NCBI GenBank assembly: GCA_944387405.1
Contig: CALXET010000003.1
Location: forward strand, 143,758-207,757
Length of the DNA stretch: 64,000 nucleotides
DNA from: an uncultured Clostridia bacterium
Lineage (GTDB): Bacteria; Bacillota; Clostridia; TANB77; CAG-508
Reading direction: 5' to 3'
Shown here: one piece after another, positions 4,020 through 60,305 of the stretch
Position numbering within the stretch: the stretch's first letter is position 1
Layout: every line of letters begins with the position of its first letter
Made by a program: the position numbers and the translations under genes
Notes under the pieces: generated by a model
What the model was told of the DNA's origin: nothing
Database searches by the model: none
Seen by the model: the letters and a program-made list of their open reading frames with translations, nothing else

Positions 4020-6080
4020 TTATAATTCAATTTTATCTACTACTTTATATGTATCCATATCTATAATATTTATATTTGTATCTGCAAGTGTATATAAATA
4101 ATCACCAATATAAATTATTCTTCTTATTTCATCATTATATTTATATGATGAATTTTCTGATTTTATTTTTTCACTCTTTACTTTTATCTCTTCTATAAAT
4201 TTATTATTTTCTAAATCTACTTTAAATATAATTGCTCCATTAAATGTATCATCATAACTTTCATCAGAAATATTAGCTGGCAAAGCTAGCAACTCTTTTT
4301 CTTTTGAACATAGCACTGCTTTATGATTATTTAAAGCTTCTGAATATCCGTAGTTTTCCCCTAATATAGTATTAAATAATTCTTTTGGATTATTTAAATC
4401 ACTTACATCAAACATACTGATCTTGATACCTTTTGTTGTTACTGATCCATATTTAGTAACTTCTGTATTCATTCCTATACCAATTATATGAGTATCATCA
4501 TAAGGATGCAGATAGCTACTATATCCTGGAATTTTTAATTCTCCTTTAATTTCTGGATTTACTGGATCTTTCAAATCTATTACAAATAGTGGGTCTACTT
4601 GTTCAAATGTTACTACATATCCAATATCATTCATAAATCTAACTGAATATATTTTCTCTCCTTCTGCTAAACCTTTAAGACTTCCTACTTCTTTTAAATT
4701 CTCATCTAATATAAATACATTATTTACTGTATCATTTTTTTCATTATATCCTGTAGTCGCAATTCTAAAATATCCATTATATTCATCCATAGAAAATTGA
4801 TTTAATACTGTTCCATCTACTGTTCCTTTTCCTAAAAATTCTATATTATTATCTAGTAATTTAAATTTAAATATGTCAGTCTCTGAATTATAATCATAAG
4901 TTCCAAATACTCTACTGTATTGTGAATCATATTTTGCTTTTGTTACATATATATTATTTTCACTACAATAAATTTCATTCCCAAGTCCTAAAAATGTTTC
5001 CACATTTGCTTCTTCATTTTTATTAATATTTACAGCTGTAACTAATGTATATGAAGAATCTTCAGAACCTTTAATATAGTAAATATCTGTACATTCTATA
5101 GTCTTATAGTCATCTCCTGATATAGTATCTTTATATGTTGGAAGTTCTATCTCTACCTCTTGTTCTTCATAATTTCCAGTTACATCATTATATACATAAT
5201 TATACATGTTATTATATTTTTGTGAAATTATATATAAATTATCTTCTATCATTCTTGAATCTGTATAATCACCTACTGATATAACTTCTCTTTCTTTTTG
5301 TATATTATCTTTATTTTCTATATTATAAATCACAGCTACTGTCTCTGTTGTAGATTCTTTTTTCTCATCTTTATTGTTTACTCTTGTTTCCATTACAATT
5401 AATTTATTGTTGTATAAATACATTTCACTGGCATATAAATATTTATATCCTTCTTCATTAATATTAATTTCAGAAATAACTTTTCTTGAATCTACATCTA
5501 TTATTTTTATCACATTCTTATTTTCATAACTTTTTGTATTTGAATGATTTATTAGATAATAAATATATTTTCCATCTGTTTTTACAATATCTGCTTCATC
5601 TACATTTTCATGTTGTACATTTGTCTTAGAAAAATCTGTAGAGCTATTTGATTCTTCTTTTGTACTTTCTGTAGTTGTAGTAGCATCATTAATAATTACA
5701 CTTCCTTCTAGAGCAGAATTATAATATCTATCATTACTTGACGCATCTTTTATTATCTTTTCTAATTCTTCTATATTTTTAATTTTTTCTATACCAGCTT
5801 CTTGAAGGTCAGCTTTAGCTATTATTTCATGATTTTTAACTATATTTTGATTAAGATTTTCATTTTCTGTTTTATTTAATTTTAACTTATTAGTTGCTAT
5901 AAATGCTCCAGTAAGTATTACTACTAAACAAGCTGCACAAGAAATTAATCTTTTTAAAACTATTTTTGATTTATTATTTTTATTGTAATTTTCAATAGAG
6001 GCTTTTATGACTTTTTCTTTTAAATCTTCAGGAGCTTTTATTTCATTTACTTTTTTTATGTACTTTTCTTTATTATTCAT
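4020..6080 (-). CDS. Membrane-anchored anti-sigma factor with a large extracellular beta-propeller-like domain
   Basis: 686 aa. It has a short N-terminal cytoplasmic region, one TM helix (LISCAACLVVILTGAFIA), then a long Asn/Tyr-rich extracellular domain. Its start overlaps the stop of the ECF sigma gene by 8 nt, which suggests translational coupling. Confidence 0.55.
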   Translation of the reverse strand: MNNKEKYIKKVNEIKAPEDLKEKVIKASIENYNKNNKSKIVLKRLISCAACLVVILTGAFIATNKLKLNKTENENLNQNIVKNHEIIAKADLQEAGIEKIKNIEELEKIIKDASSNDRYYNSALEGSVIINDATTTTESTKEESNSSTDFSKTNVQHENVDEADIVKTDGKYIYYLINHSNTKSYENKNVIKIIDVDSRKVISEININEEGYKYLYASEMYLYNNKLIVMETRVNNKDEKKESTTETVAVIYNIENKDNIQKEREVISVGDYTDSRMIEDNLYIISQKYNNMYNYVYNDVTGNYEEQEVEIELPTYKDTISGDDYKTIECTDIYYIKGSEDSSYTLVTAVNINKNEEANVETFLGLGNEIYCSENNIYVTKAKYDSQYSRVFGTYDYNSETDIFKFKLLDNNIEFLGKGTVDGTVLNQFSMDEYNGYFRIATTGYNEKNDTVNNVFILDENLKEVGSLKGLAEGEKIYSVRFMNDIGYVVTFEQVDPLFVIDLKDPVNPEIKGELKIPGYSSYLHPYDDTHIIGIGMNTEVTKYGSVTTKGIKISMFDVSDLNNPKELFNTILGENYGYSEALNNHKAVLCSKEKELLALPANISDESYDDTFNGAIIFKVDLENNKFIEEIKVKSEKIKSENSSYKYNDEIRRIIYIGDYLYTLADTNINIIDMDTYKVVDKIEL

Positions 6081-6558
6081 CTTCGAATCCTCCTTTCAAT
6101 CTTTCTTTTAGGATTTCTCTTGCTCTATAAAGCCACGTCTTTACTGTACCTTCTTTTTTCGAAATAATCTTAGATATCTCATTTACCTTATAACCTTCAT
6201 AGTAATACAAGTAAATGACAAGTTGATAATCTTCTGGTAATTTTTTCACTTCTTCTAGTACATTATCCATATTTTCTATTTTCTCTTCTTCGTATTTTAT
6301 ATTTTCATCTAATTCAATATTTCTTTTGTTCCATGGAGCTTTAAGATAATTATTTGATGTATTTATTGTTACTCTTATAAGCCATGCTTTTTTGTGTTCT
6401 TCTGATTTAAATTTTGGAAGTTTTGAACTAAATTTTAAAAACACATCTTGATATATATCTTCAGCTATATCTTTTGTTTTTACTCTTGTAAGGGCAATTC
6501 TATATACCATATCAGAATACATATTAATTGTATTTACAATATAATCTTGACTAGTCAT
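6073..6558 (-). CDS. ECF-type RNA polymerase sigma factor (sigma-70 regions 2 and 4)
   Basis: 161 aa. Region 2 is DVFLKF...AWLIRVTIN. Region 4 contains the HTH EGYKVNEISKIISKKEGTVKTWLYRAREILKERL. Confidence 0.8.
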   Translation of the reverse strand: MTSQDYIVNTINMYSDMVYRIALTRVKTKDIAEDIYQDVFLKFSSKLPKFKSEEHKKAWLIRVTINTSNNYLKAPWNKRNIELDENIKYEEEKIENMDNVLEEVKKLPEDYQLVIYLYYYEGYKVNEISKIISKKEGTVKTWLYRAREILKERLKGGFEDE

Positions 6559-6799
6559 TTTTTACCTCCTTACTATTAATACAATCTATTTTAATCTTTG
6601 GTTTCAACTTTCTTTGTTTTCTTTCTATTTTTTAAATTTTACTTCTATTTTTTATTTTTTATTTTTAATTTTTAATTTGAAGCAATTTAAAATAAATTCA
6701 TAAATTAATAAATTCACAAAAAATAAAAGCATTATAAATTACTTTTCAGCAATCACTAATAAATTACTGTAAGTTTTTATAATGCTTATACAATATTTT

Positions 6800-8596
6800 T
6801 TATTCTTCCTCAGATTTATATTTTTCTTTCATTCTAACATATCCAAGCTCAATCCACTCATTGTATGCTAAATTCAATTTAAATAATAATTTAGGTTTAG
6901 CGCCTGCTCTGTTTTTATCTACTACGCAAACATAATATCTTAAATCTGGATCATCAGAATCTTCTAAATCATGACATTCTATAAATCTATCAGAATCAGA
7001 ATATTCATATTCAGAATAATTTCTTCTATGAATCTGCTTAAATAAAGAAAGTGTATCAAATACTTCTTTTACATTTTTACTTACAGATAAATCATTAATT
7101 GTTAAGTTTATAGGTAATGTAGTATTTTCTAATAACTGAAGTGATGCTCCAATAAATATATTAAATTTTTGTGTAAGTTCTGATAGTAAAGTAGCTGTTT
7201 TCTTAAGTTCTTCATAATTTCCAATATTATTTACATCTGTTTTTAATGTATCATAAAATACATATTCAATACCATCTTTATACATGTAGTTAGATATAAC
7301 TTCATGAAGGTCATTATTTGTATATTCTGTTAAATGAACAAAATATACAGAATTATCTATTTGCTCATTAACCCAATTTGTAACTTCCATAATTTGATTA
7401 AATTCTGAAGATTCTTCTGCTAATCTTTTTATAAAATCTGTATGTGATTCATTATCTAATTTCTTAATAAAACCTTGTTCATCTAATAAAACTTCTTTTG
7501 GATTGTCAGCTCTAAATTTAAATTCAAGTAATTCTCCTTCATTTTTTCTCATTACTTGTTTATGAAATTTTTGCATTTCCGGGTTATTAATAATAGTAGT
7601 AAGCAAACAAAGTCTCATTTTATCTTCAGTCATTTCGTTTGAAACTATTAAGACTTTTTTCTTATGCAAGAATGCAATATTTGCTGCTAAATTTACTGCG
7701 AACCTACTTTTACCAGCATTAGATGGCATAGCATATGCCATAATTTCACCTTTTCTAAATCCCTTAAAAACTTTAGTCATAATAGGAAATGGAGTTGGTA
7801 TACCTTCTCTTAATTGATTTTTATCATCAAGCCAGAATTTTGCTATATCTTTATTTAATACAGCTTGGCTTAATCTATTTGTTACATTTAATTGCTTTAT
7901 AGCCGCTTCAACTTCTTCTGCAGTCATATCTTTATATCTATCATAACTTTTGATTTCAAGAATCTTTTCTTGCATTACTCTTGTTGGAGCTTTCATATAA
8001 TTTTTCTTTAAAATAAATAATTTCTTTAATTCCCTATATATTAATTCAAAATCGTATTTTTGATCTAATGGAGCCTGTGCCATTGCATATTTTATATCAT
8101 ATAATTCTGGAATAGCTTTTGGAAAGTTAAACTCTTCTTTTAATTGTGGTGGGGCACTTTTTTCTCCTTCTTTGAAGATTACACTTTTATATAAATTCAT
8201 TATAATTATACTTGAAAAGAAACATGTGTCTTTCTCAAAATAATATTTTGATATTGCATTTGGTGTTCCATATAAAAGAGCAATATATAATGTTTCTAAT
8301 GTCATATTTTCAAGCTCTTTTGGAAATTCTATGTCTGGAATATCTTCTGGTATTCCAACATTTGACATCTCTTGAGCTTTTCTTTCTCTTTCCTCTAAAA
8401 CATTAATTTGACCTTGTATCTGATATATAAATTCATCTTTGTCAAATTCTTTTTCTTCTACTTCTTCTTTTTTTAACCTTTCAGCTTCTTCTTCAGCTTT
8501 TCCTTTATTCAATATTTTAGTAAGATTCATCTCTAGTTCTTTATATTTTCTTTGTTCTTCTGTTTCTTCTTCGTATCTCACTCTTACTTCCTCCAA
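6800..8596 (-). CDS. DnaB-family helicase C-terminal (RecA-like) domain protein with an uncharacterised charged N-terminal region of about 300 aa
   Basis: 598 aa. The Walker A resembles DnaB (GEIMAYAMPSNAGKS), the H2/Walker B motif is VLIVSNEMTEDKMRL, and the C-terminal VCVVDKNRAGAKP resembles the DnaB KNRNG motif. There is no DnaB N-terminal domain. The gene lies 11 nt downstream of pdp. Confidence 0.6.
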   Translation of the reverse strand: MEEVRVRYEEETEEQRKYKELEMNLTKILNKGKAEEEAERLKKEEVEEKEFDKDEFIYQIQGQINVLEERERKAQEMSNVGIPEDIPDIEFPKELENMTLETLYIALLYGTPNAISKYYFEKDTCFFSSIIIMNLYKSVIFKEGEKSAPPQLKEEFNFPKAIPELYDIKYAMAQAPLDQKYDFELIYRELKKLFILKKNYMKAPTRVMQEKILEIKSYDRYKDMTAEEVEAAIKQLNVTNRLSQAVLNKDIAKFWLDDKNQLREGIPTPFPIMTKVFKGFRKGEIMAYAMPSNAGKSRFAVNLAANIAFLHKKKVLIVSNEMTEDKMRLCLLTTIINNPEMQKFHKQVMRKNEGELLEFKFRADNPKEVLLDEQGFIKKLDNESHTDFIKRLAEESSEFNQIMEVTNWVNEQIDNSVYFVHLTEYTNNDLHEVISNYMYKDGIEYVFYDTLKTDVNNIGNYEELKKTATLLSELTQKFNIFIGASLQLLENTTLPINLTINDLSVSKNVKEVFDTLSLFKQIHRRNYSEYEYSDSDRFIECHDLEDSDDPDLRYYVCVVDKNRAGAKPKLLFKLNLAYNEWIELGYVRMKEKYKSEEE

Positions 8597-8607: not shown

Positions 8608-9915
8608 TTATTTTGTCATAACTGCTAAAATTGCACTTCCTTTACTAAACATCTTTTTACCTATCATATAAGATTCAATTATATTTTTTGAAGCTCCATT
8701 TATTTTTGACTCATCATTTGTATAAATATACGCAATAGTATCTCCTTCTTTAATGTAATCATCCATTTTCTTTTCTAGTACTATACCTGATGTATAATCC
8801 ATTTCGTCTGATGCAGTTTTTCTTCCAGCACCTAGATATATAGCAATATTTCCTATTCTCTCTGCATCTAGCATTTGAACATATCCAGAATAAGGTGATT
8901 TTACTTCGAATTTATATTTTGCCTCTCCTAGTTTTGAATAATCTTCAATAAAAGATATATCTCCACCTTGTATTTCAATAAGTTTTTTAAATTTCTCGAG
9001 TGCTTTTCCTGATTTAATTGCTTCATCTATCATTTTTTTTGCATCTTTTTCATTTTTTGCTATACCATACATTAATATCATTTGACTTCCCACAGTATAA
9101 ACAACTTCTTTTACATCTTTTTCAAAGTTTCCTTTTAAAGCCTCTACAGCTTCTATTACCTCTAATGAATTACCAATACTCTTTCCTTGTGGTTCATACA
9201 TTTTTGATATGACGCACCTTACTTCTTTTCCAGCTAATTTTCCCGAATCCATTAATAATCTTGCAAGTATTCTAGCATCTTTATAATTTTTGATTGAAGA
9301 GCCATATCCACATTCGATATTTATTAGTAATTTATTTGCTCCAGATGCTATTTTTCTACTCATTACACTTGCAGCAACTAAATTTAAATTATCCATGCAA
9401 TCAATTTTTCTTCTTAAATCATATAGTCTTTTCTCTGCTGGTGCTATATCTAATAAATTAGTAGTTACACTAATTTTTTCATCTTTTAGATTATCCTTAT
9501 ATTCTTCAATTGTTATATCTGATCTAAATCCAGGAATTGATAATAGTTTGTCTCCTGTACTTCCACCAAGTCCAATTCCTTTTGATGTAAGCTTTCCAGC
9601 AGGAATATCTAAAGATGCAAGTATAGGAAGAAGTATTAATGTTACTTTATCTCCAACTCCTCCTATAGAATATTTTTCCACAAAGTTTTCTGAAACCTCT
9701 GACATGTCAATCTGATCACCAGACTCAGCCATTGCTATAGTTAAATCTTTTATTTCTTCTTTTGTAAGTCCATTTATACACATTGCCATTACAAGTCCAG
9801 TAGCTTGATAATCTTCTATATTTCCTTTTCCATATTCTTTAACAAAGTATTCTATTTCTTCTTTTGTCAATATTCCTTTTTTTCGTTTCTTCGTTAGTAA
9901 ACTAATAATATTCAT
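8608..9915 (-). CDS. pdp: Pyrimidine-nucleoside (thymidine) phosphorylase
   Basis: 435 aa. It has the glycosyl transferase family 3 layout, the N-terminal LTKEEIEYFV...ATGLVMAMCINGLT and the SIGGVGDKVTL phosphate-binding motif. Confidence 0.9.
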   Translation of the reverse strand: MNIISLLTKKRKKGILTKEEIEYFVKEYGKGNIEDYQATGLVMAMCINGLTKEEIKDLTIAMAESGDQIDMSEVSENFVEKYSIGGVGDKVTLILLPILASLDIPAGKLTSKGIGLGGSTGDKLLSIPGFRSDITIEEYKDNLKDEKISVTTNLLDIAPAEKRLYDLRRKIDCMDNLNLVAASVMSRKIASGANKLLINIECGYGSSIKNYKDARILARLLMDSGKLAGKEVRCVISKMYEPQGKSIGNSLEVIEAVEALKGNFEKDVKEVVYTVGSQMILMYGIAKNEKDAKKMIDEAIKSGKALEKFKKLIEIQGGDISFIEDYSKLGEAKYKFEVKSPYSGYVQMLDAERIGNIAIYLGAGRKTASDEMDYTSGIVLEKKMDDYIKEGDTIAYIYTNDESKINGASKNIIESYMIGKKMFSKGSAILAVMTK

Positions 9916-9939
9916 ATTAGAAACCCTTTCTCTATAATT

Positions 9940-10572
9940 TTATTTATTTATAAAATTTTTAATAAAAGTTTTTCTATGTAACATACATGGTCCATATTCT
10001 TTGATAGCTTCAATATGTTTTTTTGTACCGTATCCTTTATGTCCTTTAAATCCATACTCCGGAAACACTTCATCCCACTGCCTCATTATCCTATCTCTTG
10101 TAACTTTTGCTATTATTGATGCTGCAGCAATACTATATTCCTTAGCGTCTCCTTTTATTATAGATTTATAAGGAATTCCTAAAGTATCTATATTTGTAAG
10201 TGCATCAACTAATATTAAATCAGGTTTAACTTTAAGTGAAGATATTGCCATTGTAACAGCCTCTTTTGTAGCATTTAATATATTTATTTCATCTATTCTG
10301 TTTTGATCTACTATTCCTACTCCCCATGCAATAGCTTCATTTGTTATTTCATCATATAATTTTTCTCTTTTCTTTTCAGAAACTTTTTTTGAGTCATTAA
10401 CGCCTTCAATCATTGAGTCTTTAGGCATTATTACTACGCCCACAACAACAGGACCAGCTAATGGACCTCTACCTGCTTCATCTATTCCTGCTATATATTC
10501 AATATTCTTTTCATGTAATTTTTCTTCATCTGCCTTTAATAATTTTAATCTTTCTTCTTCTTTTTCTTTCAT
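9940..10572 (-). CDS. rnhB: Ribonuclease HII
   Basis: 210 aa. The catalytic motif GIDEAGRGPLAGPVVVGVV and the DSK...E residues are present. Confidence 0.9.
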   Translation of the reverse strand: MKEKEEERLKLLKADEEKLHEKNIEYIAGIDEAGRGPLAGPVVVGVVIMPKDSMIEGVNDSKKVSEKKREKLYDEITNEAIAWGVGIVDQNRIDEINILNATKEAVTMAISSLKVKPDLILVDALTNIDTLGIPYKSIIKGDAKEYSIAAASIIAKVTRDRIMRQWDEVFPEYGFKGHKGYGTKKHIEAIKEYGPCMLHRKTFIKNFINK

Positions 10573-10573
10573 T

Positions 10574-11053
10574 TTATGACTCCAAATCTTTTAATTTTCC
10601 TAAAGTATAATACATATTTCCATTTGTACTTTCATATCCTCCTGAATAATATACATCAATTGGATCAATATCTTCTTTATCTACCCCTTCTTCGCTATTT
10701 TCTTCTGTTAAATCATATTTAACACAATAATAATATTCATCTGTTGGAGTAAAATCTATTCCCATACTCTTCATATCTTCACTACTTAGTTTATACCATT
10801 TTTCATTTCTTATTTCATCGCCTTCATTTAAAGTAACTTCTTGTCCTAATAATTTTGAACCCTTGTATAAATGTTCATTATATATTTCTTCTGCTTTTGC
10901 TTGTATTAATTGCATTTGAGAAACTCTATCTGCAAGCTCTGTCTTTTTCCTTAAATTACTACCTGCAGTCATCGCAATACTTGCTACTACAACCATTACG
11001 ATTACAGTAATTATAAGCATTGCCATAGTAACGCCTTTTTCATTTCTTAACAT
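10574..11053 (-). CDS. Hypothetical protein with a prepilin-like N-terminal hydrophobic segment
   Basis: 159 aa. NEKG-VTMAMLIITVIVMVVVASIA resembles a class III (type IV pilin) leader but lacks the conserved Phe at +1 and Glu at +5. It is immediately upstream of rnhB. Confidence 0.3.
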   Translation of the reverse strand: MLRNEKGVTMAMLIITVIVMVVVASIAMTAGSNLRKKTELADRVSQMQLIQAKAEEIYNEHLYKGSKLLGQEVTLNEGDEIRNEKWYKLSSEDMKSMGIDFTPTDEYYYCVKYDLTEENSEEGVDKEDIDPIDVYYSGGYESTNGNMYYTLGKLKDLES

Positions 11054-11400
11054 CTTAATCCTCCGTACTTTACTTTTTATCTTTTATTTTATCTTTTATT
11101 TAAGTTATATTTAACATTATAATTGTATTATATATTTACATTATGATTTTTTCAACAAAAAAACACTTTATAATTTAATTTTTTAAACTTAATTATTTTA
11201 CTCGTATTTTTATCGTTTTTAATTAAATTTATTTACAATTTTTAATATAATTTTAATTTTACAAATATTATAATTAAATTATAGAAAAAATTATTTATTA
11301 ATTTATTAATTTTAATTTTATTTTATTTTTGTATATGATATTATTTATAATATAGATTATAATATTGTATAAAAATATTATTTAAATTCTTAAGGAGGAT

Positions 11401-25785: not shown

Positions 25786-27393
25786 TTATTCAACTATTGT
25801 CATTATCATTCCAGCTTGATCTACATAATTATCTCCATCTTTAATAGAAAATCCATCTTCATATAAAGTCATTGATTCAGCATTATATAATTTTTGACCT
25901 TTTTCATCACATACGTATTTATCAAATCCTGTATCATTAGAATATGAAATAAAGAATCTTCCTTCACCTAGATATGTGCATTCTTCAGCACCTTTTATTG
26001 GATCAAATTGTTTATTTCCTTCTTTATCACATATTGTAACAAATTTTGTTCCACTATCATTTGAAGTTATGACTCCATAATAGCCTTCATCAGACATAGT
26101 TGTTAATGATTCAACATTTTCCTCTTTTATAGAAACTTGTTTTTTACCATTTACATCATAATATCCATAACTTATATCATAATCTCTAGTTTTATCATTG
26201 TATTTTCTAATTTTTACTGCTAATAAATCATTATTAAGTTTTCCATATACTGAATCTACATTTTTTACTATAGTTGTTGTTTTTCCTGATTCTTCGTTAA
26301 TTTTTACTAATTGATCATCATAATCTAATATTATTATACTATCATCATCTTCTGCTATTATTTCTTTAATCAATCCTTTAATTGTTACATTTTTAGCAAC
26401 ATCAACTAAATAAACTTTATCATATCCATCTGTAATTATGTTTTCACCAATACCTTCCGTCATTTTATTTAATTTTTCATTATCTGCAGATAATTTTAAA
26501 ATCCAATTTCCTTCAAAATCTATTATTCCATATTGAGTTTCTGCTTTATCATACTCATCTATTTTTTTACTTACAAGAGCACAATCAGCAAGAGCATCTT
26601 CAGAAATGATTTCATCAAAAGCTTCATTATTTTCATCAGTTGTTATTATTCTTCCTGTTTTATCTATAATTGCTTTTTTATAATTATTTTTTGTAATTAA
26701 AGCAAATCCTTCGTCTGAAAAGTCAGTAACTTGTTCATATTCTTCTGGTAATTTAAATACTACTTTTCCTTCTGTATTTATACATACCCACTGATTATTT
26801 AATTTGCTCCATGCCACATCATTTCTAAATTCTCTTTTATCAGTAGTAACAATTGTAGTAGGAGTAGATTCTGTTACAGTATTTTGTACAGAAACATTTT
26901 CTTCCATATTTCCAGAAATATCATTCATCGCTTCTTCTACGTCCTCTTCTAATTTGTCACTCTTTTCTTCATTTTCAAAATACTCTTCAATCTCTTCTCT
27001 AAATACTAGATAAAATCCTCCTGCTAAAAGAATTAATATTATGATTATGATTAAAAAAATCTTTAATTTTGATTTTTTCTTTTTTGGCTTTTCTGAACCT
27101 GATTCTTTTTTTACTTCTTCCTTCTTAGGAGTTTCTGAAATTGCTTCATCTTTTTTAGGTTCTTCTTTTACTTCTTTTTTTTCTTCTTTAGTTTCTTTTG
27201 GCTCTATTTTTTCATCTTCCTTAGATTCTTCTGTAGTTTCAACCTTATCATTATTTTCTTTAACATCTTCTGAAATATTTTCAACTTGTTTTTCTTCTTT
27301 AGGTTCATCTACTTGTTCTGATAATTTTGATCCACATTTTGTGCAAAACAAGCTGTTTTCTGGTACTTCTTCTCCACATTTTTTACACTTCAT
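25786..27393 (-). CDS. Membrane protein with an N-terminal zinc-ribbon, a Lys/Glu-rich linker, one TM helix and extracellular WG-like repeats
   Basis: 535 aa. The zinc ribbon is CKKCGEEVPENSLFCTKCG. The TM helix is IFLIIIIILILLAGGFYLVF. Repeated motifs include KAIIDKTGRI / YGIIDFEGNWILK / YDVNGKKQV. Confidence 0.4.
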   Translation of the reverse strand: MKCKKCGEEVPENSLFCTKCGSKLSEQVDEPKEEKQVENISEDVKENNDKVETTEESKEDEKIEPKETKEEKKEVKEEPKKDEAISETPKKEEVKKESGSEKPKKKKSKLKIFLIIIIILILLAGGFYLVFREEIEEYFENEEKSDKLEEDVEEAMNDISGNMEENVSVQNTVTESTPTTIVTTDKREFRNDVAWSKLNNQWVCINTEGKVVFKLPEEYEQVTDFSDEGFALITKNNYKKAIIDKTGRIITTDENNEAFDEIISEDALADCALVSKKIDEYDKAETQYGIIDFEGNWILKLSADNEKLNKMTEGIGENIITDGYDKVYLVDVAKNVTIKGLIKEIIAEDDDSIIILDYDDQLVKINEESGKTTTIVKNVDSVYGKLNNDLLAVKIRKYNDKTRDYDISYGYYDVNGKKQVSIKEENVESLTTMSDEGYYGVITSNDSGTKFVTICDKEGNKQFDPIKGAEECTYLGEGRFFISYSNDTGFDKYVCDEKGQKLYNAESMTLYEDGFSIKDGDNYVDQAGMIMTIVE

Positions 27394-47063: not shown

Positions 47064-48782
47064 TTATTTATAAATTCTATAAATCTTATTATTTATATCT
47101 TGCACTTCTCCAGGTTCTATTAATACTTCATATTTATCAAATCCTGTATAATCTAATACTGTTTGTAAAACCTGTTCATCGTTTGCAGCAGTAACTTCTA
47201 CTCCTAAAATAAATTCATCTTTATTCTTTAATTCTTCATCATCTTTAATCCACCATAAATCTTCTTGTGCCATAAGCATCGTGTTTTCATAAGTCATAAA
47301 TTCTGGTAAAAATTGAATATGATTAAATAATAAATATCCTACATATACATAATCACAATCTCTGTGTTCCTCTGCAACCTCTAAATACTTATTATATCCT
47401 TCATACAAATAAGATGGTTTTTGTGTAATAAATCCATATCCAGTAAGTCCAATAACCATTGCAGCTACAAGTAATATCTCATAAGTCCTGTTATCAAACA
47501 TACTTCCTACCATCATTACAACAAATATTGTTGCTATTGGAAGTACATTCATTATATATCTAAGTTCGACATATGGAGCAATTTTAGCAATTATCATTAT
47601 ATAGCAAACTACTGGTATTGATATTAAACAAAATATTGGTAAGTTTTCTTTTTTCTTAACAATTATTACTACAAATATTGATAATATTATAAGTGCAATT
47701 CCAATAATATTATTAGCTCCAAAATTATTTAATATTAATTCTGCAAAAGCTTTTAATCTTGGTCCATATAATTCATTAGCGAAAAATCCAACTCCTCTTT
47801 CACCAAAGAACATATGATATAAAGACATTGGGAATATTAAAATTCCTATAATAGCTGAAACTGCAAATATTCCAACATATTTTGCTAGTTCCTTATATTT
47901 TTTCTTTATTAAGAAAATTATTCCCATTATAATAACAACAAGCAAAGCATAGAAACAGAAGAAATACTGTGTTAAAAATCCTCCCACCGTCGTTAATATC
48001 AGTTCTATAATTTTTCGTTTATCTATATGATAATCATTTTTTACAATCTTAATATTTAAATATAAAAATACTATTGTAAAAAATGTAAGCATCATATACA
48101 TTCTTAAAAACACAACTGTTGAAATTCCTGCAATACTTAAGCCATATAATAATACAGTAAGTATTGAAAGTTCTTTCTTATCTATTTCAATTAATATTTT
48201 TCTCATAAAATATGCTGTAAGTATAAAAAATGCAACATTTATACCAAAAATAATATATTTACTACTATTATTTTGAAATATTGAAGAAACCGTATTCACT
48301 ATTAAATAAAATAGTGGGGGATGAACATCACTTATTTGATTCCAGTATACAGATGAAAAATTAAATGCATCTCCATTTCCTGTTACCTGCATATAATCTA
48401 TTGCCTCTTCCCTTGTTCTCCAAGTATTTTCTTGTTCATCTGCTTTTTCTTTAATTAACCTGTCCTTTTCTTCAGTATTGTCTATATAATATTTTTTAAC
48501 ATTTCCTATAATGTCAAAAATATTTCCTTGCATTATATATTCATCAAAGAAAACTTTTTCAGGATCTATTTTCCAATCTGAATAAAACACATTTGAATAT
48601 GTTGAATTTGATGATCCATATGAAAATATTTCATCACAATGGAAACCTTCTTTTTTATTTATAAAGAAAAGCATTACTAATAATATTAAAACTAGTGAAA
48701 CACCAAATAATATTCTTTCAATTAGTACTGCTTTTGTTTTTACAGCAAGGCTCTCTTCTTGCTCTTTGTTTATCTCTTCCAT
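47064..48782 (-). CDS. GT-C-fold membrane glycosyltransferase (ArnT/PMT-like)
   Basis: 572 aa with about 12 TM helices. The early DE motif is FHCDEIFSYG and the HPPL motif is HPPLFYLIVN, both typical of the PMT_2/ArnT families. Confidence 0.5.
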   Translation of the reverse strand: MEEINKEQEESLAVKTKAVLIERILFGVSLVLILLVMLFFINKKEGFHCDEIFSYGSSNSTYSNVFYSDWKIDPEKVFFDEYIMQGNIFDIIGNVKKYYIDNTEEKDRLIKEKADEQENTWRTREEAIDYMQVTGNGDAFNFSSVYWNQISDVHPPLFYLIVNTVSSIFQNNSSKYIIFGINVAFFILTAYFMRKILIEIDKKELSILTVLLYGLSIAGISTVVFLRMYMMLTFFTIVFLYLNIKIVKNDYHIDKRKIIELILTTVGGFLTQYFFCFYALLVVIIMGIIFLIKKKYKELAKYVGIFAVSAIIGILIFPMSLYHMFFGERGVGFFANELYGPRLKAFAELILNNFGANNIIGIALIILSIFVVIIVKKKENLPIFCLISIPVVCYIMIIAKIAPYVELRYIMNVLPIATIFVVMMVGSMFDNRTYEILLVAAMVIGLTGYGFITQKPSYLYEGYNKYLEVAEEHRDCDYVYVGYLLFNHIQFLPEFMTYENTMLMAQEDLWWIKDDEELKNKDEFILGVEVTAANDEQVLQTVLDYTGFDKYEVLIEPGEVQDINNKIYRIYK

Positions 48783-48866: not shown

Positions 48867-51800
48867 TCATACTATTTCAACATTATTTTCTCCAACAATT
48901 TCTTTAAATACATTTACAATCTCTTCTGTTAAATAAATTGCTCCACATGGTTTTACTTGAGCTTTGTCTACAACTTGAACTTTAACATTAACTCTATCTC
49001 CACTAAAGAACTTAATTGCCCCTCTTAATCTTTTTTTAGTTTTTTCATCTAGTTCAGTAATATCTATTTGCATTGTTGTATATCTTTTCTTTTGTTTATC
49101 AATTTCGTTTTCATTAAATTCTCTTATGTCTCTTACTACAATTTTAGGAGTATCATCTTCTTTTATACTTAATCTTCCATCTATTAATACAATATTTTCA
49201 TCAAAAAGAATATTACTTACTCTATTATATACACTATCGAATATTATTATTTCTACACTTCCATATAAATCTTCTACCGTAACAAATGCCATAATTGTAT
49301 TCTTCTTAGTATATTTTTTCTTTACAGAGGTTATTGTTCCAGCATATTTTACATTTTGTCCATCTTTAAAATTTGTATCACTGTCGTTATCTCCTATTTT
49401 CTTTAAATCTAATGAATTAATATTAGTATTTTTAATAATACTTTCTCTAATTGAATCTAAAGGGTGTCCTGATATATATATTCCAAGCATTTCTTTTTCT
49501 TGTGATAATAATTCTTTTTTATCAAGTTCTGGTAAAACTGTATAATTATATTTTATCTCATCTGACGCCTCATCTGATACTATATCAAACATAGTAACCT
49601 GATTTGCTAGCGAATTTCTATTCTGATTATTTATTGTATCTAATATTCCCTCAAATGAAGCTAAAAGAGTGTTTCTTGTCTGTTCCATATCATCAAAACA
49701 ACCTGCTTTAATAAGAGATTCTACACACTTTTTATTTATATTTTCATCTTTAATTCTTTCACAAAAATCAGTAAAACTCTTAAACTCTCCATTCTTATTT
49801 CTTTCATTTACAATATTATTTACAGCAGCTACACCAACATTTTTAATACTTCCCATTCCAAATCTTATCTTTCCATCTTGTACTGTAAATTTAGTAAAAC
49901 TTTTATTTATATTTGGTTTTAATATTTCTATATTTAATCTTCTGCATTCATCAATATATACAGGAACTTTATCTAAATTTCCTAAAAAACTATTTAATGT
50001 TGCTGCCATAAATTCTTCAGTATAATAATATTTTAAATATGCTGTCCTATATGATACTACAGAATATGCAGCAGCATGTGATTTATTAAAAGCATATTTT
50101 GCAAACTCTGCCATCTCATCAAATATCTTATTAGCAGATGCTTCATCTATACCGTTTCTTATACACCCTGGAACTATAATATTTCCATTTTCATCTACTT
50201 GTCCATGAATAAAATATTCTCTTTCTTTTGCCATTACATCTAACTTCTTCTTACCCATTGCTCTTCTTACTAAGTCAGCTCTACCTAGAGAATATCCTGC
50301 TAAATCTCTTACTATTTGCATAACTTGTTCTTGGTATACCATACAACCATAAGTTACATTTAATATTGGTTCTAATGCTGGATGAGTATATTCATTATGT
50401 CCTGGATGTCTCTTTCCTTTAATATACCTCGGAATTTGATCCATCGGACCTGGTCTATATAATGAAACACCAGCAATTATATCTTCTAAACAATCTGGCT
50501 TTAATTCTTTCATGAAATTAGTCATTCCTGCACTTTCAAATTGGAATATTCCGCATGTATTTCCATCTGCCCATTGTTTATAAACATTTTGATCATTCAT
50601 ATCTTTGTCAAATTCAACATTTATGCCTCTTGTTTGTTTAACAAGTTTTATACAATCTGATATAACAGTTAAAGTTCTTAATCCTAAAAAGTCCATCTTT
50701 AAAAGTCCAAGTTCTTCTAAAAGAGTCATTGTATATTGTGTTGAAACATTACCATCGTTCAAATATAGGGGTACATACGTATCTACTGGATCTTTTGTAA
50801 TTACTACTCCACAAGCATGTGTTGAAGCTTGTCTTGGAAGTCCTTCAAGTGAAATTGCAATATCTATTAATTGTTTAACATTTGGATCTGAATCATACCA
50901 TTCTTTAAGCTCTCTATTTTGCTCTAAAGCTTTTTTAATCGTTATATGAATCTCCATTGGAATCATTTTTGCAAGTTTATCTGTCTCAGAATATGGAAAA
51001 TCTAACACTCTTCCTACGTCTCTAATTACCATTCTTGCTGCCATTGTACCAAATGTTATAATTTGTGATACATGATCATTTCCATATTTTCTCCCAACAT
51101 AATCTATAACCTCTTGTCTTCTTTCATAGCAAAAATCAACATCAAAATCTGGCATACTAATTCTTTCAGGATTTAAAAATCTTTCAAAAATTAAATTATA
51201 CTTTATAGGATCTATGTCAGTTATTCCAATACAATATGCTGCCATAGAACCTGCACCTGATCCTCTTCCTGGTCCTACTGGAATTCCTACACTTTTAGCA
51301 TAATTTATAAAATCCCAAACTATTAAGAAATAATCTACATATCCCATCTTTTCAATTATTGAGATTTCATACTCTAATCTATCTTTTAATTCTTTAGATG
51401 GATTTTCTCCATATCTATTTTTAAAACCATCATAGCAAAGTTTTTTAAAGTAATCTGCATGTGTTGCAAACTCTTCTGGAACATCATAATTTGGAAGTTT
51501 TGTAACACCAAATTCAAAATCATAATTACATTTTTCTGCTATTTTTACTGTATTTGATACAGCTTCTGGTATGTTTTCAAAATAATCAGACATCTCTTCT
51601 TTAGATTTTATATAAAATTCATCTGTCTCAAATCTCATTCTGTCTTCATCAGACATCTTTTTACCTGTCTGAATACATAATAAAACTTCATGATTATATG
51701 CATCTTCTCTTTTTAAATAATGTGCATCATTCGTGCCAACTAATGGAATATCTAATTTTCTTGCAAGTTCTATTAATTTTTGATTTACCATTATTTGCTC

Positions 51801-52340
51801 TCTTAGTCCATTATTTTGAATTTCTATATAATAATCATCTTTAAATAAATTTTTATACCATAAAGCAATCTCTTCAGCTTTTTCCATATTATTTTGAATA
51901 ATAGCTTGTGGCACCTCTCCCGCTAAACATGCACTTAGACATACTAATCCTTCACTATATTTTTCAAGAATTTCTTTATCTATTCTTGGTTTATAATAAA
52001 AGCCTTCAACAAAAGAAAGGGATACTAGTTTAATTAAATTTTGATACCCTTTTTTATTTTTTACTAACAATATTAAATGATTATATCCTGCATCAATTGA
52101 AGCTTCTTTATCAAATCTAGTTCTTCTTGCTACATAAACTTCACATCCAATAATAGGTTTTATATCATTTTTCTTGCATTCCTTATAAAATTCAACTGCA
52201 CCATACATTACTCCATGATCAGTAAGAGCAATAGCATTCATACCAAGTTCTTTTGCTCTTTTAGGTAAATCTTTAATTCTACTCATTCCATCTAATAAAC
52301 TATATTCACTGTGGACATGTAAGTGCACAAAATCAGACAT
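48867..52340 (-). CDS. dnaE: DNA polymerase III alpha subunit (DnaE type)
   Basis: The N-terminal PHP domain starts HLHVHSEYSLLDG. The polymerase core and the C-terminal OB domain are present. The likely start is the ATG at 52338-52340 (MSDFVHLH) with the RBS AAGGAGAAGG. The track ORF extends upstream to 52373. Confidence 0.9.
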   Translation of the reverse strand: MSDFVHLHVHSEYSLLDGMSRIKDLPKRAKELGMNAIALTDHGVMYGAVEFYKECKKNDIKPIIGCEVYVARRTRFDKEASIDAGYNHLILLVKNKKGYQNLIKLVSLSFVEGFYYKPRIDKEILEKYSEGLVCLSACLAGEVPQAIIQNNMEKAEEIALWYKNLFKDDYYIEIQNNGLREQIMVNQKLIELARKLDIPLVGTNDAHYLKREDAYNHEVLLCIQTGKKMSDEDRMRFETDEFYIKSKEEMSDYFENIPEAVSNTVKIAEKCNYDFEFGVTKLPNYDVPEEFATHADYFKKLCYDGFKNRYGENPSKELKDRLEYEISIIEKMGYVDYFLIVWDFINYAKSVGIPVGPGRGSGAGSMAAYCIGITDIDPIKYNLIFERFLNPERISMPDFDVDFCYERRQEVIDYVGRKYGNDHVSQIITFGTMAARMVIRDVGRVLDFPYSETDKLAKMIPMEIHITIKKALEQNRELKEWYDSDPNVKQLIDIAISLEGLPRQASTHACGVVITKDPVDTYVPLYLNDGNVSTQYTMTLLEELGLLKMDFLGLRTLTVISDCIKLVKQTRGINVEFDKDMNDQNVYKQWADGNTCGIFQFESAGMTNFMKELKPDCLEDIIAGVSLYRPGPMDQIPRYIKGKRHPGHNEYTHPALEPILNVTYGCMVYQEQVMQIVRDLAGYSLGRADLVRRAMGKKKLDVMAKEREYFIHGQVDENGNIIVPGCIRNGIDEASANKIFDEMAEFAKYAFNKSHAAAYSVVSYRTAYLKYYYTEEFMAATLNSFLGNLDKVPVYIDECRRLNIEILKPNINKSFTKFTVQDGKIRFGMGSIKNVGVAAVNNIVNERNKNGEFKSFTDFCERIKDENINKKCVESLIKAGCFDDMEQTRNTLLASFEGILDTINNQNRNSLANQVTMFDIVSDEASDEIKYNYTVLPELDKKELLSQEKEMLGIYISGHPLDSIRESIIKNTNINSLDLKKIGDNDSDTNFKDGQNVKYAGTITSVKKKYTKKNTIMAFVTVEDLYGSVEIIIFDSVYNRVSNILFDENIVLIDGRLSIKEDDTPKIVVRDIREFNENEIDKQKKRYTTMQIDITELDEKTKKRLRGAIKFFSGDRVNVKVQVVDKAQVKPCGAIYLTEEIVNVFKEIVGENNVEIV

Positions 52341-52426
52341 AATCCTTCTCCTTTTTTTACGTAAATATATCACACTATCCCCAATTTATCAACATAATTT
52401 GGAAAGTTACAAACACTTAATTTTTC

Positions 52427-53870: not shown

Positions 53871-54287
53871 TTAATGAATAATTTTATCAATGTAGAAATT
53901 TTTTAAATCTATAATATATTCCACATTGACAGGAGTTGATATTGCGCACTCTCTGAGCACCGCTTCGAAAAAACCAGTTTCTGCAGTAATACTGAGTTTG
54001 TTTTTTTCTCTTCCAAAAAATCTTTTTCTCGGATGAAACTTCTTGTTTTCCGGAGCATCTGCATTCTGCATTATTGACAGAACCTCACTATAGACGACTT
54101 TCTTTACAATAGAAGGTTCTTTCTTCATCCTCTGATTCCAGTACTCCACTTCACCTAAGTCATCCATAGCAGTTGCTCTCCAGAATTCGAGATTTTCTAA
54201 ATGATTCCGGCTAACACATTCTGCAAAAGCAGTAGCTACATCTTCTAAAGACTTTCCTTCAAAGATTCTTCCTTCTCTTCTTTCCAT
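53871..54287 (-). CDS. Hypothetical protein with a GC-rich N-terminal two-thirds (last gene of the three-gene cassette)
   Basis: 138 aa. The RBS is AAGGAGAAGG. The first roughly 300 nt are about 40% GC, against roughly 25% around it, by eye, and the 3' end reverts to AT-rich. No recognisable motif. Confidence 0.5.
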   Translation of the reverse strand: MERREGRIFEGKSLEDVATAFAECVSRNHLENLEFWRATAMDDLGEVEYWNQRMKKEPSIVKKVVYSEVLSIMQNADAPENKKFHPRKRFFGREKNKLSITAETGFFEAVLRECAISTPVNVEYIIDLKNFYIDKIIH

Positions 54288-54369
54288 ACATCCTTCTCCT
54301 TACTAAAGCATCTCTGTGACATGATTATTATATCATCAATACAATTTTTAATCAATTATGTAAACAGCT

Positions 54370-55068
54370 TTACTTGCTTAATATCCAATCTACAATTACT
54401 TTTTTTATTTCATAGTATTCTTGTTCTGTAAATTGCATATTAGCAATACAAAATCTTCTACTTGATATGTGAGAACAAAACATACATTCATATAAATTAT
54501 TACAATCTTGAATAAAATATGAATTTACTATTTTAGCAGAACATATTACATTATAACTATTAGAACAAGCTGTGGAATCATCTACTCTAATACAATTTAT
54601 TGAATTTCCTGTTCTTTGAGAAGCAATTACTCCTTCACAATCTCCACATCCATCTGAGAAAATCATGTTTTTACATTTTCTGCAATCTGTTGATCTAAAT
54701 ATATTTTCCGAATCATATATAGTATCACTTTCAGATACATTTATTGAATTATATATTCTCTCTGTCGTTGTAAAATTAATTCTATTCCATATATTTATTA
54801 TGTCTTCTAAAGACTTTATTTCTCTTTTAGAAACCATCCACCCTTTCGCTTTATCATATTTTCTCATTGTATCTTGCTTAATATATTTTTTAGAATTTTC
54901 CATTTCAGACCATGTTATTTCTCCTGTCACGCTGTCTTTAACTTGTTTTGGGAGTTTAACATCAAAAGCAAATTTTTCCTCTAGTTCCTCAATTGTAAAT
55001 GGACATTCTCTTCCAAATATATTAAAAAATACCTTTGAAATTTCTTTTTCTACTTCTAATCTATTCAT
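54370..55068 (-). CDS. Cys-rich hypothetical protein (multiple CxxC pairs in the C-terminal half; possible metal-binding domain)
   Basis: 232 aa. The C-terminal roughly 100 residues contain 14 Cys, including CRKC, CGDC and CMFC. The start ATG overlaps the stop of the upstream ATPase gene by 8 nt (ATGAATAG). Confidence 0.5.
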   Translation of the reverse strand: MNRLEVEKEISKVFFNIFGRECPFTIEELEEKFAFDVKLPKQVKDSVTGEITWSEMENSKKYIKQDTMRKYDKAKGWMVSKREIKSLEDIINIWNRINFTTTERIYNSINVSESDTIYDSENIFRSTDCRKCKNMIFSDGCGDCEGVIASQRTGNSINCIRVDDSTACSNSYNVICSAKIVNSYFIQDCNNLYECMFCSHISSRRFCIANMQFTEQEYYEIKKVIVDWILSK

Positions 55069-56947
55069 ATCTTATTTTTCTCCTACTCGTAGATTGTGAT
55101 TCCATTAATTTTTTTATATCAAACTTATTATCACCAATTTTAAATCCTATATTTTTTAATAACTTATTTTTTCTGTTATCATCTTTAGCATCTGGCTTCA
55201 TTAATATTTGATTTTTATTTTTGGGGATTGGTTTAAAATCTATTGTTCTAGCTCTAAATGCAGGAATAAGAACTCCATTTTTAGTTATTCTTACTATACA
55301 ATCTCTATTTGGTAGTTCTGTTAAAAGTTTAATCCTATTATGATATGTATTTTTTACCGCCATTTCCATTTGTAATTGATTATTTAAAATCATAGCATCT
55401 TCTCTAGAAATTCTAAATGAATAATAATTCATTACATTTGAAAAAATCGCATCTTGTAAATCTTCACTTATTTGTCCAAAATATTGCCCTGCAAGTATTA
55501 TTGACAAATTATATTTTCTAGCTTCAGAAAGTAAATTTTTAAGTATTGGATTTTCTACTACAGCAACTTCATCAATTATTAAAATTAAATGTTCTAAAAA
55601 AGCATGTCTTTGAACTAATTGAAATATTACTCCCATTATAAGTCCCGCTATTGTTTTAGTAACTTTTTCTCCAAGTTCTGCTTGATTTAAAGAAAATATA
55701 GTTAAAAAATTATTTCTAATCTCATTTTCAATGTTTTTTTCATTTTTTTCTCTAAAGCATGGCAACATTTGCATTTCATCAATAAGAGCAATTATCGGAG
55801 ATATAGCTTCAGTATATGAATTTGTCTTTATCTCATTAAAATCAGAACCAAAAAACTCTTTGATATGTGATTCTACATCATCAGATTCTCTTAACAATTT
55901 ATTTCTAAATTCAGTATCTATTATTAATTTTCTTAAATTTTCAAAATCTAATTTCTCCTTTTTAAGTAATAAATAAATACTATGTCTTAACACTCTTTCA
56001 AGCTTTGAATTAAATTCTTCTCCAAACACACTTTTTAATACAGTAAGTAATATTTCTGTTCCACTACTTACATTTTTATTTGAATTAATTAGGAGGTCAA
56101 CACTACTAGATTTTTTCTTCATATCAATTACTTGTGTTTCATCCAATCCACCTATATCATTTTCTATTGAACTATGTGGATCTATCATCACAATTTTGTA
56201 ATCTGCTTTAAAATTTTTATTATCATAAATATTTTTTATCATTTGCGCTATAAGTTTAGATTTTCCAGTTCCACTTCCACCTACTATCAATGAATGTTTA
56301 TCAAAATCATAATTTTCAATATTTAAAAAATATTTATTCTGTGAATATGGAAAAGTATTTACTTCTAGCATATTGTCTTTCTTTTCATCTGTTTCAAACA
56401 TATGTATAGATTTTTGAATTTGCAAATATTTACTTCCTTCTTTTACATATGAAAATCTAGTATGCTTTGAAAAATCAACACTAAGTTGAATATGAGGAAT
56501 AAAAAATATAGTTCTTCCTTTTGATTTATTCCCCCTTTCATGTTCAAAATATAATTTAGCCTTAGTAAAATAATTAGTTTTAGAAAAAGATGTAAAAGTA
56601 ATTTCAACTTGCTTTAAAAACTGTCTATATTTTGATTCATTTCTATCATAAATATCTACCAAGTTGTTTTCATATTTTCTTACTAAATATAAATATTCTA
56701 TTAAAGTCTTTTCTCTCTTAAAAGAATCTATTTTTTTTATCAGAAAACTACCTGAACAACTAAGAACAGTAGGAAGTTTTTTTCTAGATACTATATAATA
56801 TTTAATTACACTTCTTTCGATTTTTACATATAACTTCCAACTTCTAAAAAATCCATTTAGATTTGAAATCTCTAATAAAAATTTTAACCATTCATTTTCA
56901 TCTATATAGTCAGAAGTTAAATATATTTCATACATATATCTCTTCAT
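55061..56947 (-). CDS. P-loop NTPase of the FtsK/HerA/TraG (AAA-like, DUF87-type) superfamily with an uncharacterised N-terminal domain of about 220 aa
   Basis: 628 aa. The Walker A is SLIVGGSGTGKSKLI (about residues 220-234). The Walker B is HLILIIDEVAVVEN. No TM segments. Confidence 0.6.
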   Translation of the reverse strand: MKRYMYEIYLTSDYIDENEWLKFLLEISNLNGFFRSWKLYVKIERSVIKYYIVSRKKLPTVLSCSGSFLIKKIDSFKREKTLIEYLYLVRKYENNLVDIYDRNESKYRQFLKQVEITFTSFSKTNYFTKAKLYFEHERGNKSKGRTIFFIPHIQLSVDFSKHTRFSYVKEGSKYLQIQKSIHMFETDEKKDNMLEVNTFPYSQNKYFLNIENYDFDKHSLIVGGSGTGKSKLIAQMIKNIYDNKNFKADYKIVMIDPHSSIENDIGGLDETQVIDMKKKSSSVDLLINSNKNVSSGTEILLTVLKSVFGEEFNSKLERVLRHSIYLLLKKEKLDFENLRKLIIDTEFRNKLLRESDDVESHIKEFFGSDFNEIKTNSYTEAISPIIALIDEMQMLPCFREKNEKNIENEIRNNFLTIFSLNQAELGEKVTKTIAGLIMGVIFQLVQRHAFLEHLILIIDEVAVVENPILKNLLSEARKYNLSIILAGQYFGQISEDLQDAIFSNVMNYYSFRISREDAMILNNQLQMEMAVKNTYHNRIKLLTELPNRDCIVRITKNGVLIPAFRARTIDFKPIPKNKNQILMKPDAKDDNRKNKLLKNIGFKIGDNKFDIKKLMESQSTSRRKIRYE

Positions 56948-57868: not shown

Positions 57869-58060
57869 TATTCTTCTCCAATTTTTATAACTTTTTTCTC
57901 TAAAAATTAATTTTATTATCTTTTATTTTTTCTTTTATTCTTTTTTAATTAATTTTACCAATTTATAAATAATTGATAAAATTCTAATTCTATTGTATAA
58001 TTATACAATAATAATTAATAAAAATCTATAAATTATAAAAATTAAGAGAGGATAAAAAAT

Positions 58061-58927: not shown

Positions 58928-58992
58928 GTTTTTAAAATCTTTACATTATTTTTTTCTTATCAAAATAAAAAATTAATACGAAAAATATAAAA

Positions 58993-59017
58993 AGCAGATG
59001 ATTTAATTTCATCTGCT
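58993..59017. terminator. Bidirectional intrinsic terminator (agcagatga / tcatctgct) between the Cof gene (+) and cdaA (-)
   Basis: A 9-bp stem with a 7-nt loop, followed by TTTTATTTTTAC. Confidence 0.6.
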
Positions 59018-59048
59018 TTTATTTTTACTACTTTTCATATTTTTTATT

Positions 59049-59939: not shown

Positions 59940-59962
59940 TATACACCTCTTTTACTAATTTA

Positions 59963-60073: not shown

Positions 60074-60305
60074 ATTTACTTTCCCTCTTTCTTATGTATA
60101 TAAATTCACATCATATAAAATTTATATCATATTACATATATTTTTTCAATAGTATTTACTTGTTATTTCTGCCTATTTTTGTTACTTTTAGGATTTAAAA
60201 ATACTTTAGAAAATAAAATTTAAAATTCTCAAATTTAATTAAATTTTTATATTTTTTTATCATTTTTTTGTATTTTTTATTTTTTTCTACGTTTTTTATG
60301 GATGT

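Follow-up and report, generated by a model that had tools for sequence, protein, structure and literature searches.

What is the DnaB-like protein encoded on the minus strand of this 64,000-nt stretch of DNA (the window), and could it be the helicase that replicates the chromosome it sits on? The window is part of a low-GC (~25%) bacterial chromosome from an uncultured member of the Clostridia, and the gene in question lies behind rnhB and pdp (encode RNase HII and a nucleoside phosphorylase, respectively). The original prediction, made from the sequence without database searches, described the product as a non-canonical DnaB-like ATPase with a novel N-terminus. The analysis described here supports part of that description. 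By its predicted structure, the protein is a complete DnaB-family helicase. Outside its own family, its nearest relatives are phage helicases, and its gene is a core gene, present in single copy, in a group of gut bacteria. It may be the only replicative helicase that this clade has.

The open reading frame (ORF) is uninterrupted from 8596 to 6800 and encodes 598 amino acids (aa) when counted from a TTG codon at 8596, which sits 11 nt past the pdp stop codon. Both the length and the spacing had been given correctly, although the start codon needs revision. The only ribosome-binding site (RBS) present, GGAGGA (8594–8589), is overlapped by the TTG, and a GTG codon at 8581 lies 7 nt further on, 26 nt from the pdp stop. 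A database protein (P0001; 593 aa, 99% identical) begins at the residue encoded by this GTG. Because the TTG overlaps the RBS, and because P0001 has the length and N-terminus expected for initiation at the GTG, the true start is most likely GTG 8581, giving a protein of 593 aa. Residue numbers throughout refer to the 598-aa ORF counted from the TTG.

Is the protein a complete DnaB? Its three motifs on which the DnaB assignment originally rested are all present: AMPSNAGKS, IVSNEMTEDKMRL (residues 317–329) and VVDKNRAGAKP. In an alignment of 35 diverse family members, G295, K296 and S297, E321 (motif H1a), D449, Q487 (motif H3), and K561, N562 and R563 are invariant, and these catalytic positions line up with the corresponding motifs of E. 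coli DnaB; the Walker motifs are not degenerate. An AlphaFold2 model built from 35 diverse homologues has a mean predicted local distance difference test (pLDDT) score of 80. When the model was compared with the PDB using Foldseek, the best 50 matches were all full-length chains of DnaB, SPP1 G40P or T4 gp41 (E = 3.6e-16 to 4esv). The alignments extend over ~510 columns against chains of ~420 residues, meaning that both domains match. A search of a viral structure library returned only generic DnaB-like matches, none better than those in the PDB. The model therefore shows a protein with the full set of DnaB parts (superfamily 4, SF4): an N-terminal domain with its helical hairpin, a linker helix and a RecA-like ATPase domain.

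The N-terminal domain deserves particular attention because it had been reported missing, its place being taken by a highly charged region of ~300 aa with no recognizable fold. This is not what the model indicates. Residues ~92–262 are predicted to fold as the DnaB N-terminal domain, with head, hairpin and linker, and their mean identity within the family is 60%, at the lower end of the 60%–75% seen for the protein outside the tail. Only residues 1–~91 are both charged and poorly conserved (30% mean identity). Hence, the novelty of the N-terminus is confined to this extra charged tail. The Pfam model of the DnaB N-terminal domain, PF00772, does not match the window helicase. Two of ten ~515-aa relatives that were scanned match it weakly, which ties the domain to DnaB by sequence as well as by fold.

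How far does the protein stand from known replicative helicases? Profile scores place it well outside the bacterial ones, consistent with the earlier description of it as non-canonical. The Pfam DnaB_C model covers only residues 265–361, with 34.3 bits (cutoff, 27). The equivalog for bacterial replicative DnaB, TIGR00665, reaches 34.4 bits (E = 1e-8) against a cutoff of 385.25, NF004384 reaches 32.1 bits against a cutoff of 525, and the best solved DnaB scores 27 bits against the helicase. AAA_25 and KaiC had been proposed alongside DnaB_C as families to search; AAA_25 stays below its cutoff (21.5 bits against 27), KaiC/RadA does not match, and the N-terminal domain is of the DnaB type. Twinkle gives a weak profile match (E = 0.015). 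By comparison, PHROG_19, a family of phage DnaB-like replicative helicases, matches residues 216–591 with E = 1.9e-22. The assignment is as follows: the protein belongs to the DnaB family by fold and motifs, it lies outside the curated replicative equivalog by score and synteny, and it groups with phage helicases by sequence while not being phage-encoded. No description of such a helicase family was found in the searchable literature.

The affinity to phage helicases can be traced to particular proteins. The gp100 protein of Geobacillus virus E3 is annotated as a “putative replicative DNA helicase,” and its gene adjoins genes for a primase and a single-stranded DNA exonuclease. It aligns with the entire C-terminal domain of the window protein (29% identity over residues 269–591; pairwise E = 4e-32), has an identical VFYDTLK motif (Walker B) and scores 116 bits, while the best solved bacterial DnaB reaches 27 bits. 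The next full-length profile matches are ~515-aa proteins (P0176 and others; 278 bits, E ~1e-77) in which both the N- and the C-terminal domains are covered. P0176 is itself 34% identical to gp100 across 98% of its length, and its close homologues on viral contigs lie in a module of helicase, primase, RecJ-like exonuclease and DNA polymerase genes. A structured insertion of ~55 aa in the ATPase domain of the window protein also occurs in P0176, P0183 and other ~515-aa relatives; E3 gp100 and E. coli DnaB lack it. The hosts of the phage relatives include Geobacillus, Lactococcus, Bacillus, Lysinibacillus, Psychrobacillus and Thomasclavelia. The bacterial family, on the other hand, is narrow, with four full-length clusters at 50% identity at the top of the profile search. 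When the family profile was run against 1.84 billion cluster representatives, it matched only 542 proteins at E ≤ 1e-3 and 108 at 1e-30. This is a compact family, whose profile does not reach as far as the canonical DnaBs. Judged from these comparisons, the nearest relatives outside the family are the replicative helicases of large Firmicute phages rather than bacterial DnaB. Since the phage relatives are spread across the Firmicutes and their bacterial counterparts form a narrow family, it is more economical to suppose that the bacterial gene has a phage-type origin.

How does the protein compare with known systems? First, it shares with bacterial DnaB (E. coli DnaB and Geobacillus/Bacillus DnaC; PDB entries 4esv, 2r6a and 6qel) the two-domain architecture, the linker, motifs H1–H4 and a full-length structural match, but it is only ~15% identical in sequence, carries the ~55-aa insertion and a charged or acidic tail, and is not encoded beside rplI. 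Second, the large Firmicute phage helicases (the PHROG_19, E3 gp100 and P0176 types) are its best sequence relatives, and the P0176 type shares the insertion. Their genes lie beside those for primase, RecJ-like exonuclease and DNA polymerase, whereas the bacterial gene is solitary amid housekeeping genes; among the inspected loci, no homologues of phage primase, RecJ or gp99 were found near the bacterial helicase genes. The phage relatives listed above also lack the long tail of the bacterial family. Third, SPP1 G40P (3bgw) and T4 gp41 (8dtp), both among the Foldseek matches, have the same fold and domain order, but their sequence similarity is not detectable past the P-loop region, and neither is the closest phage relative. 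Fourth, T7 gp4 and mitochondrial Twinkle have the SF4 RecA-like core in common with the window protein, but they have a primase or primase-like N-terminus in place of a DnaB-type N-terminal domain, and the acidic tail of gp4 is C-terminal and short. Twinkle is a precedent for a phage-type helicase that has assumed a cellular replication role.

Despite this affinity, the gene behaves as a resident of the bacterial chromosome. A circular 1.8-Mb metagenome-assembled genome (MAG; OZ006973.1, “uncultured Clostridia bacterium”) matches the window at 98% identity. Among 53 species-representative genomes, one homologue is found in each locus, with 47%–98% identity. These genomes are MAGs of Clostridia or Eubacteriales; wherever a record title states the source, it is an animal or human sample. 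More than 3790 clusters match in a large protein collection, as do at least 488 stretches of metagenome contigs, and 80 metagenome loci were considered in addition to the 53 species-level ones. The helicase is 76%–80% identical to its orthologues in three related loci that keep the gene order of the window (L002, L011 and L014), similar to pdp (70%–73%) and pepF (73%–76%). Only 4 of 2.9 million viral contigs carry the gene, each near a contig end, and in the one that was examined (L056), the homologue lies just outside an integrated prophage. The gene is thus a single-copy, vertically inherited core chromosomal gene of a low-GC clade of uncultured gut Clostridia, and not part of an island, a prophage or a defence system, because it is present in single copy, is conserved at the level of housekeeping genes, has few viral-contig matches and has no PADLOC match.

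The prophage in L056 (1991–9752) lies directly 3′ of the helicase homologue. Besides a canonical-type DnaB, it encodes a tyrosine integrase, an ImmA-like protease, XRE/Cro-like regulators and a DnaD-like replication protein; ordinary helicases of the DnaB type are thus found in phages of this clade. This DnaB, 8 kb from the homologue, was considered as proof that a canonical DnaB coexists with the phage-type protein in the same genome and was rejected as such, being part of the integrated element, as the integrase, the ImmA/XRE genes and the DnaD-like gene indicate.

Does the genomic neighbourhood reveal a function? On the minus strand, the gene order is pilin-like gene, rnhB, pdp, helicase gene, ECF (extracytoplasmic function) sigma factor gene and beta-propeller protein gene, and the part of this order that was described earlier, up to the helicase gene, is as claimed. 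The best sigma-70-like promoter, at 11155–11127 (TTGAAA, 17 nt, TATAAT; 11/12 match), is upstream of the pilin-like gene, and the four genes from the pilin-like gene to the helicase gene probably form one transcription unit, in this species only. Linkage to rnhB and pdp, which had been singled out as unusual, is kept only in L001, L002, L011 and L014 among the 53 species-level loci. In other species whose helicase is just as similar (78% identity), the gene is preceded by MurT/GatD, Lgt or other genes, and the neighbours in more distant lineages include UvrC, CarD (after RadA-DisA), sporulation sigma factors and PheST. Elsewhere, genes for a serpin-like protein (recognized by eye), an antiporter, a deacetylase, and ClpX-like and SpoVK-like proteins are found nearby. 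Neither a replisome gene nor a neighbour conserved across the family was seen among the inspected loci. With linkage in 4 of 53 loci, nothing about function can be read from the proximity of rnhB and pdp. The pilin-like protein itself (159 aa; 10574–11053) has a hydrophobic, prepilin-like N-terminus (KGVTMAMLIITVIVM) without the usual Glu at +5, and no Pfam match.

Is this, then, the replicative helicase of the clade? A rough probability of 50% can be given to the reading in which the phage-type DnaB is the clade's sole replicative helicase. Every bacterium requires one DnaB-type replicative helicase and, to our knowledge, vertically conserved second copies of DnaB are essentially unheard of; a streamlined genome of 1.8 Mb is unlikely to keep a spare. 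That all 53 species-level loci hold a single copy, that the gene is conserved to the same degree as housekeeping genes and that its catalytic motifs are invariant all speak for a replicative role. In addition, the flanks of the homologues (~2 Mb of loci in total) contain no canonical dnaB other than the prophage-borne one in L056. A broader proposal is put forward tentatively, with somewhat less than even confidence: that an entire order-level clade of small-genome gut Clostridia has no canonical DnaB and replicates by means of a helicase of phage ancestry, whose hypervariable, repeat-driven polyacidic tail (up to ~570 aa, about two-thirds Asp/Glu) modulates contacts with DNA or the replisome.

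If the phage-type DnaB is the replicative helicase, how would it have arisen and how would it work? A gene of the phage-type lineage would have been acquired at the base of the clade, replacing canonical DnaB; alternatively, it might have arisen as an extreme derivative of canonical DnaB. As suggested by the fold and the conservation of the motifs, the protein would assemble, like DnaB, into a hexameric ring of two tiers around the lagging-strand template and move along it 5′ to 3′ at the expense of ATP. The collar formed by the N-terminal domains would serve as the docking site for primase.

Several observations weigh against a role as sole replicative helicase. First, the protein falls short of every curated model of replicative DnaB by a wide margin, and the NCBI label is “hypothetical protein.” Second, dnaB in Firmicutes usually adjoins rplI (encodes ribosomal protein L9), and a search with an L9 query of uncertain sensitivity found no rplI within ±10 kb of the helicase gene, whether in the window, in the 53 genome loci or in the 80 metagenome loci. 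Third, a canonical, rplI-linked dnaB may be present elsewhere in the genome; the dnaB-free flanks count for little in this respect, as each represents ~1% of a genome. Fourth, replacement of the replisome hub by a phage-type protein demands compatibility with primase, loader and clamp loader, and we know of no precedent for it.

The strongest rival explanation is that the protein is an accessory helicase, derived from a phage and domesticated, that acts beside a canonical DnaB in a second conserved task such as replication restart, repair or a sporulation-linked DNA transaction. This is possible, though less probable than a role as sole replicative helicase. It would account for a gene whose closest relatives belong to phages, whose product fails the curated DnaB models and which lacks the rplI–dnaB arrangement. 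A hypervariable acidic tail, with proteins of 578–1075 aa in one 90%-identity cluster, would also be odd for an essential replisome hub, and the probable co-transcription here with rnhB, a gene of RNA-primer and ribonucleotide removal, points in the same direction. Yet that linkage holds in only 4 of 53 species, and no conserved partner gene or operon suggests a separate pathway. Moreover, the genome is small (1.8 Mb), and a vertically conserved second full-length DnaB would, as far as is generally known, be without precedent in bacteria. The next alternative, which is unlikely, is that the gene is a fast-diverged vertical orthologue of bacterial DnaB and that phages captured such genes from bacteria. 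The DnaB-like domain architecture and the single-copy core status agree with this idea, and the insertion common to the family and its phage relatives implies gene flow in one direction or the other; but the distribution of the phage relatives across many hosts, set against the narrow bacterial family, favours transfer from phage to bacterium, and the rplI synteny has been lost. Finally, although its sequence affinity is phage-like, four viral contigs match and the L056 homologue adjoins an integrated prophage, the gene is very unlikely to be left over from a prophage, plasmid or integrative element or to encode an anti-phage defence component (the original prediction had raised a remnant replication or defence protein), given that it is intact with invariant catalytic motifs, occurs once in 53/53 species-level loci with housekeeping neighbours, has no integrase, phage or defence genes around it in the window and no PADLOC family at E ≤ 0.001, and that the viral-contig matches are near contig ends and the L056 gene is just outside its prophage.

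What is the function of the tail? Defined as the segment before a conserved “YPxEL..LE” anchor, it ranges from 1 to 568 aa among 147 family members and is often 55%–67% Asp/Glu, 67% being the maximum. In the window protein, the corresponding region is a short version (residues 1–91) that is Glu/Lys-rich and poorly modelled. Hypervariability of the tail is apparent in P0089, P0083, P0078 and P0153, and in P0089 (1020 aa), the tail has a 28-residue periodicity. A single 90%-identity cluster holds proteins of 578, 580, 848 and 1075 aa, which suggests repeat-driven expansion and contraction of the tail between strains. T7 gp4, T7 gp2.5 and SSB also carry acidic tails, and that of gp4 recruits the polymerase. 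By analogy, the tail could mimic DNA or recruit basic surfaces of partner proteins. It may be an accessory appendage that projects from the N-domain collar, perhaps as an arm that mimics DNA or recruits partners. Several related species have, directly 3′ of the helicase homologue, a gene for a 400–680-aa protein with long acidic repeats, for example, at 1058–3067 of L050 (repeats of the PEAE/EVIPE type) and 12059–13405 of L007; no family was recognized by eye for these proteins. That an acidic-repeat protein is encoded next to a helicase with an acidic tail could be coincidental or not.

The coordinates of the features discussed here are collected in the table below.

Table. Features of the helicase locus, given as positions in the 64,000-nt window, with the evidence for each
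Feature	Position	Strand	Evidence
Helicase gene, full-length DnaB-family protein, 593 aa (most likely start)	6800..8581	minus	ORF, RBS position, N-terminus of P0001
Charged, Glu/Lys-rich N-terminal extension, residues 6–91; outside the DnaB fold, lineage-variable	8324..8581	minus	Low pLDDT, two long predicted helices, 30% mean identity
Predicted DnaB N-terminal domain (globular head, helical hairpin) and linker helix, residues 92–262	7811..8323	minus	
RecA-like ATPase (DnaB C-terminal) domain, residues 263–598	6803..7810	minus	Pfam DnaB_C, PHROG_19, Foldseek, E3 gp100
Walker A (H1), AMPSNAGKS, residues 289–297	7706..7732	minus	G295, K296 and S297 invariant; aligns with GKT of E. coli DnaB
Structured insertion of ~55 aa, residues 338–396, between H1a and H2	7409..7585	minus	Gap in gp100 alignment; pLDDT 89–93
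Walker B (H2), YVFYDTLK	7241..7264	minus	D449 invariant; VFYDTLK identical in E3 gp100
H4 and arginine finger, VVDKNRAGAKP, residues 558–568	6893..6925	minus	K561, N562 and R563 invariant; aligns with KQRNG of E. coli DnaB
Intrinsic terminator after the helicase gene: long AT-rich hairpin (6723–6791), then UUUUAUUUUUU	6718..6791	minus	RNA fold
AT-rich imperfect tandem repeats; species-specific low-complexity spacer	6608..6720		Tandem Repeats Finder scores 38–76
Promoter-like block and RBS of the ECF sigma factor gene: TTGAAACC, 15–17-nt spacer, TTGTATTAATAG, GGAGG	6561..6607	minus	Conserved in the window, L001, L002 and L014
Co-directional upstream genes (pilin-like, 10574–11053; rnhB, 9940–10572; pdp, 8608–9915) and promoter	8608..11155	minus	Pfam matches (rnhB, pdp); promoter match 11/12

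Downstream of the helicase gene, the spacer begins directly after the stop codon with a terminator hairpin of -21.6 kcal/mol (z = -4.15; 0/200 shuffled sequences were as stable), an AT-rich element that a GC-based terminator scan missed. The orthologous spacers in L002, L011 and L014 are 61–115 bp long, and each has a hairpin and a T-run of differing sequence. The tandem repeats that follow in the window do exist, as originally reported; their significance as a flanking feature does not hold up. Tandem Repeats Finder returned 36 rows with a score of ≥50 across the window, nearly all of them AT-rich and intergenic, and similar arrays occur in most intergenic regions (for example, at 60239–60299). 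The repeat block is missing from the spacers of all three relatives compared. Because it is absent from relatives and similar arrays are common across the window, the block is ordinary low-complexity spacer with no bearing on helicase function.

Beyond the repeats, the block upstream of the ECF sigma factor gene resembles an autoregulated ECF-type promoter, if its −35 element is read as TGAAAC. The sigma factor gene (6073–6558) overlaps a gene on the same strand for a 686-aa beta-propeller protein with an N-terminal membrane segment (4020–6080), and the two products are likely to be a sigma/anti-sigma pair.

Other parts of the window also contain genes that may be of interest. On the minus strand, a 572-aa ORF (47064–48782) lies directly 3′ of dnaE (48867–52373) and has no Pfam or PADLOC match, and a 535-aa ORF (25786–27393) has an N-terminal zinc-ribbon match only. 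The region at 53871–56947, on the minus strand as well, encodes a 628-aa HerA/FtsK-like ATPase (Pfam DUF87; PADLOC mad8, E = 2.3e-17, and weak HerA models). Two ORFs of 232 and 138 aa come next, neither of which matches Pfam or PADLOC; together, these genes could form a small module for defence or DNA translocation. A candidate replication origin at ~59 kb, where GC skew changes sign (58000–60500), would have put the helicase gene close to oriC; it was rejected, as the skew follows the coding strand. The genes nearby encode an AraC-family regulator (HTH_18/GyrI-like), a HAD-family hydrolase, CdaA and PFL, and neither dnaA nor dnaN is among them.

What would a phage-type replicative helicase mean for these bacteria? 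The bacterial replisome centres on DnaB, which is held to be universal and easily recognized. If the phage-type DnaB is indeed the sole replicative helicase of the clade, a core cellular replication protein would here have been displaced by a viral one, a rare event comparable to Twinkle in mitochondria and to the DnaC/DnaI loaders, which are of phage origin. This would account for the apparent “missing DnaB” in these MAGs, and the question would become how the host primase, loader and polymerase were re-fitted to the new helicase. If the protein is instead a conserved second DnaB, that would likewise be without clear precedent. Whichever reading holds, it is still to be explained why a ring helicase should carry a polyacidic tail that varies between strains. 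There is also a practical outcome, in that the annotation of these “hypothetical proteins” can be corrected to full-length DnaB-family helicases.

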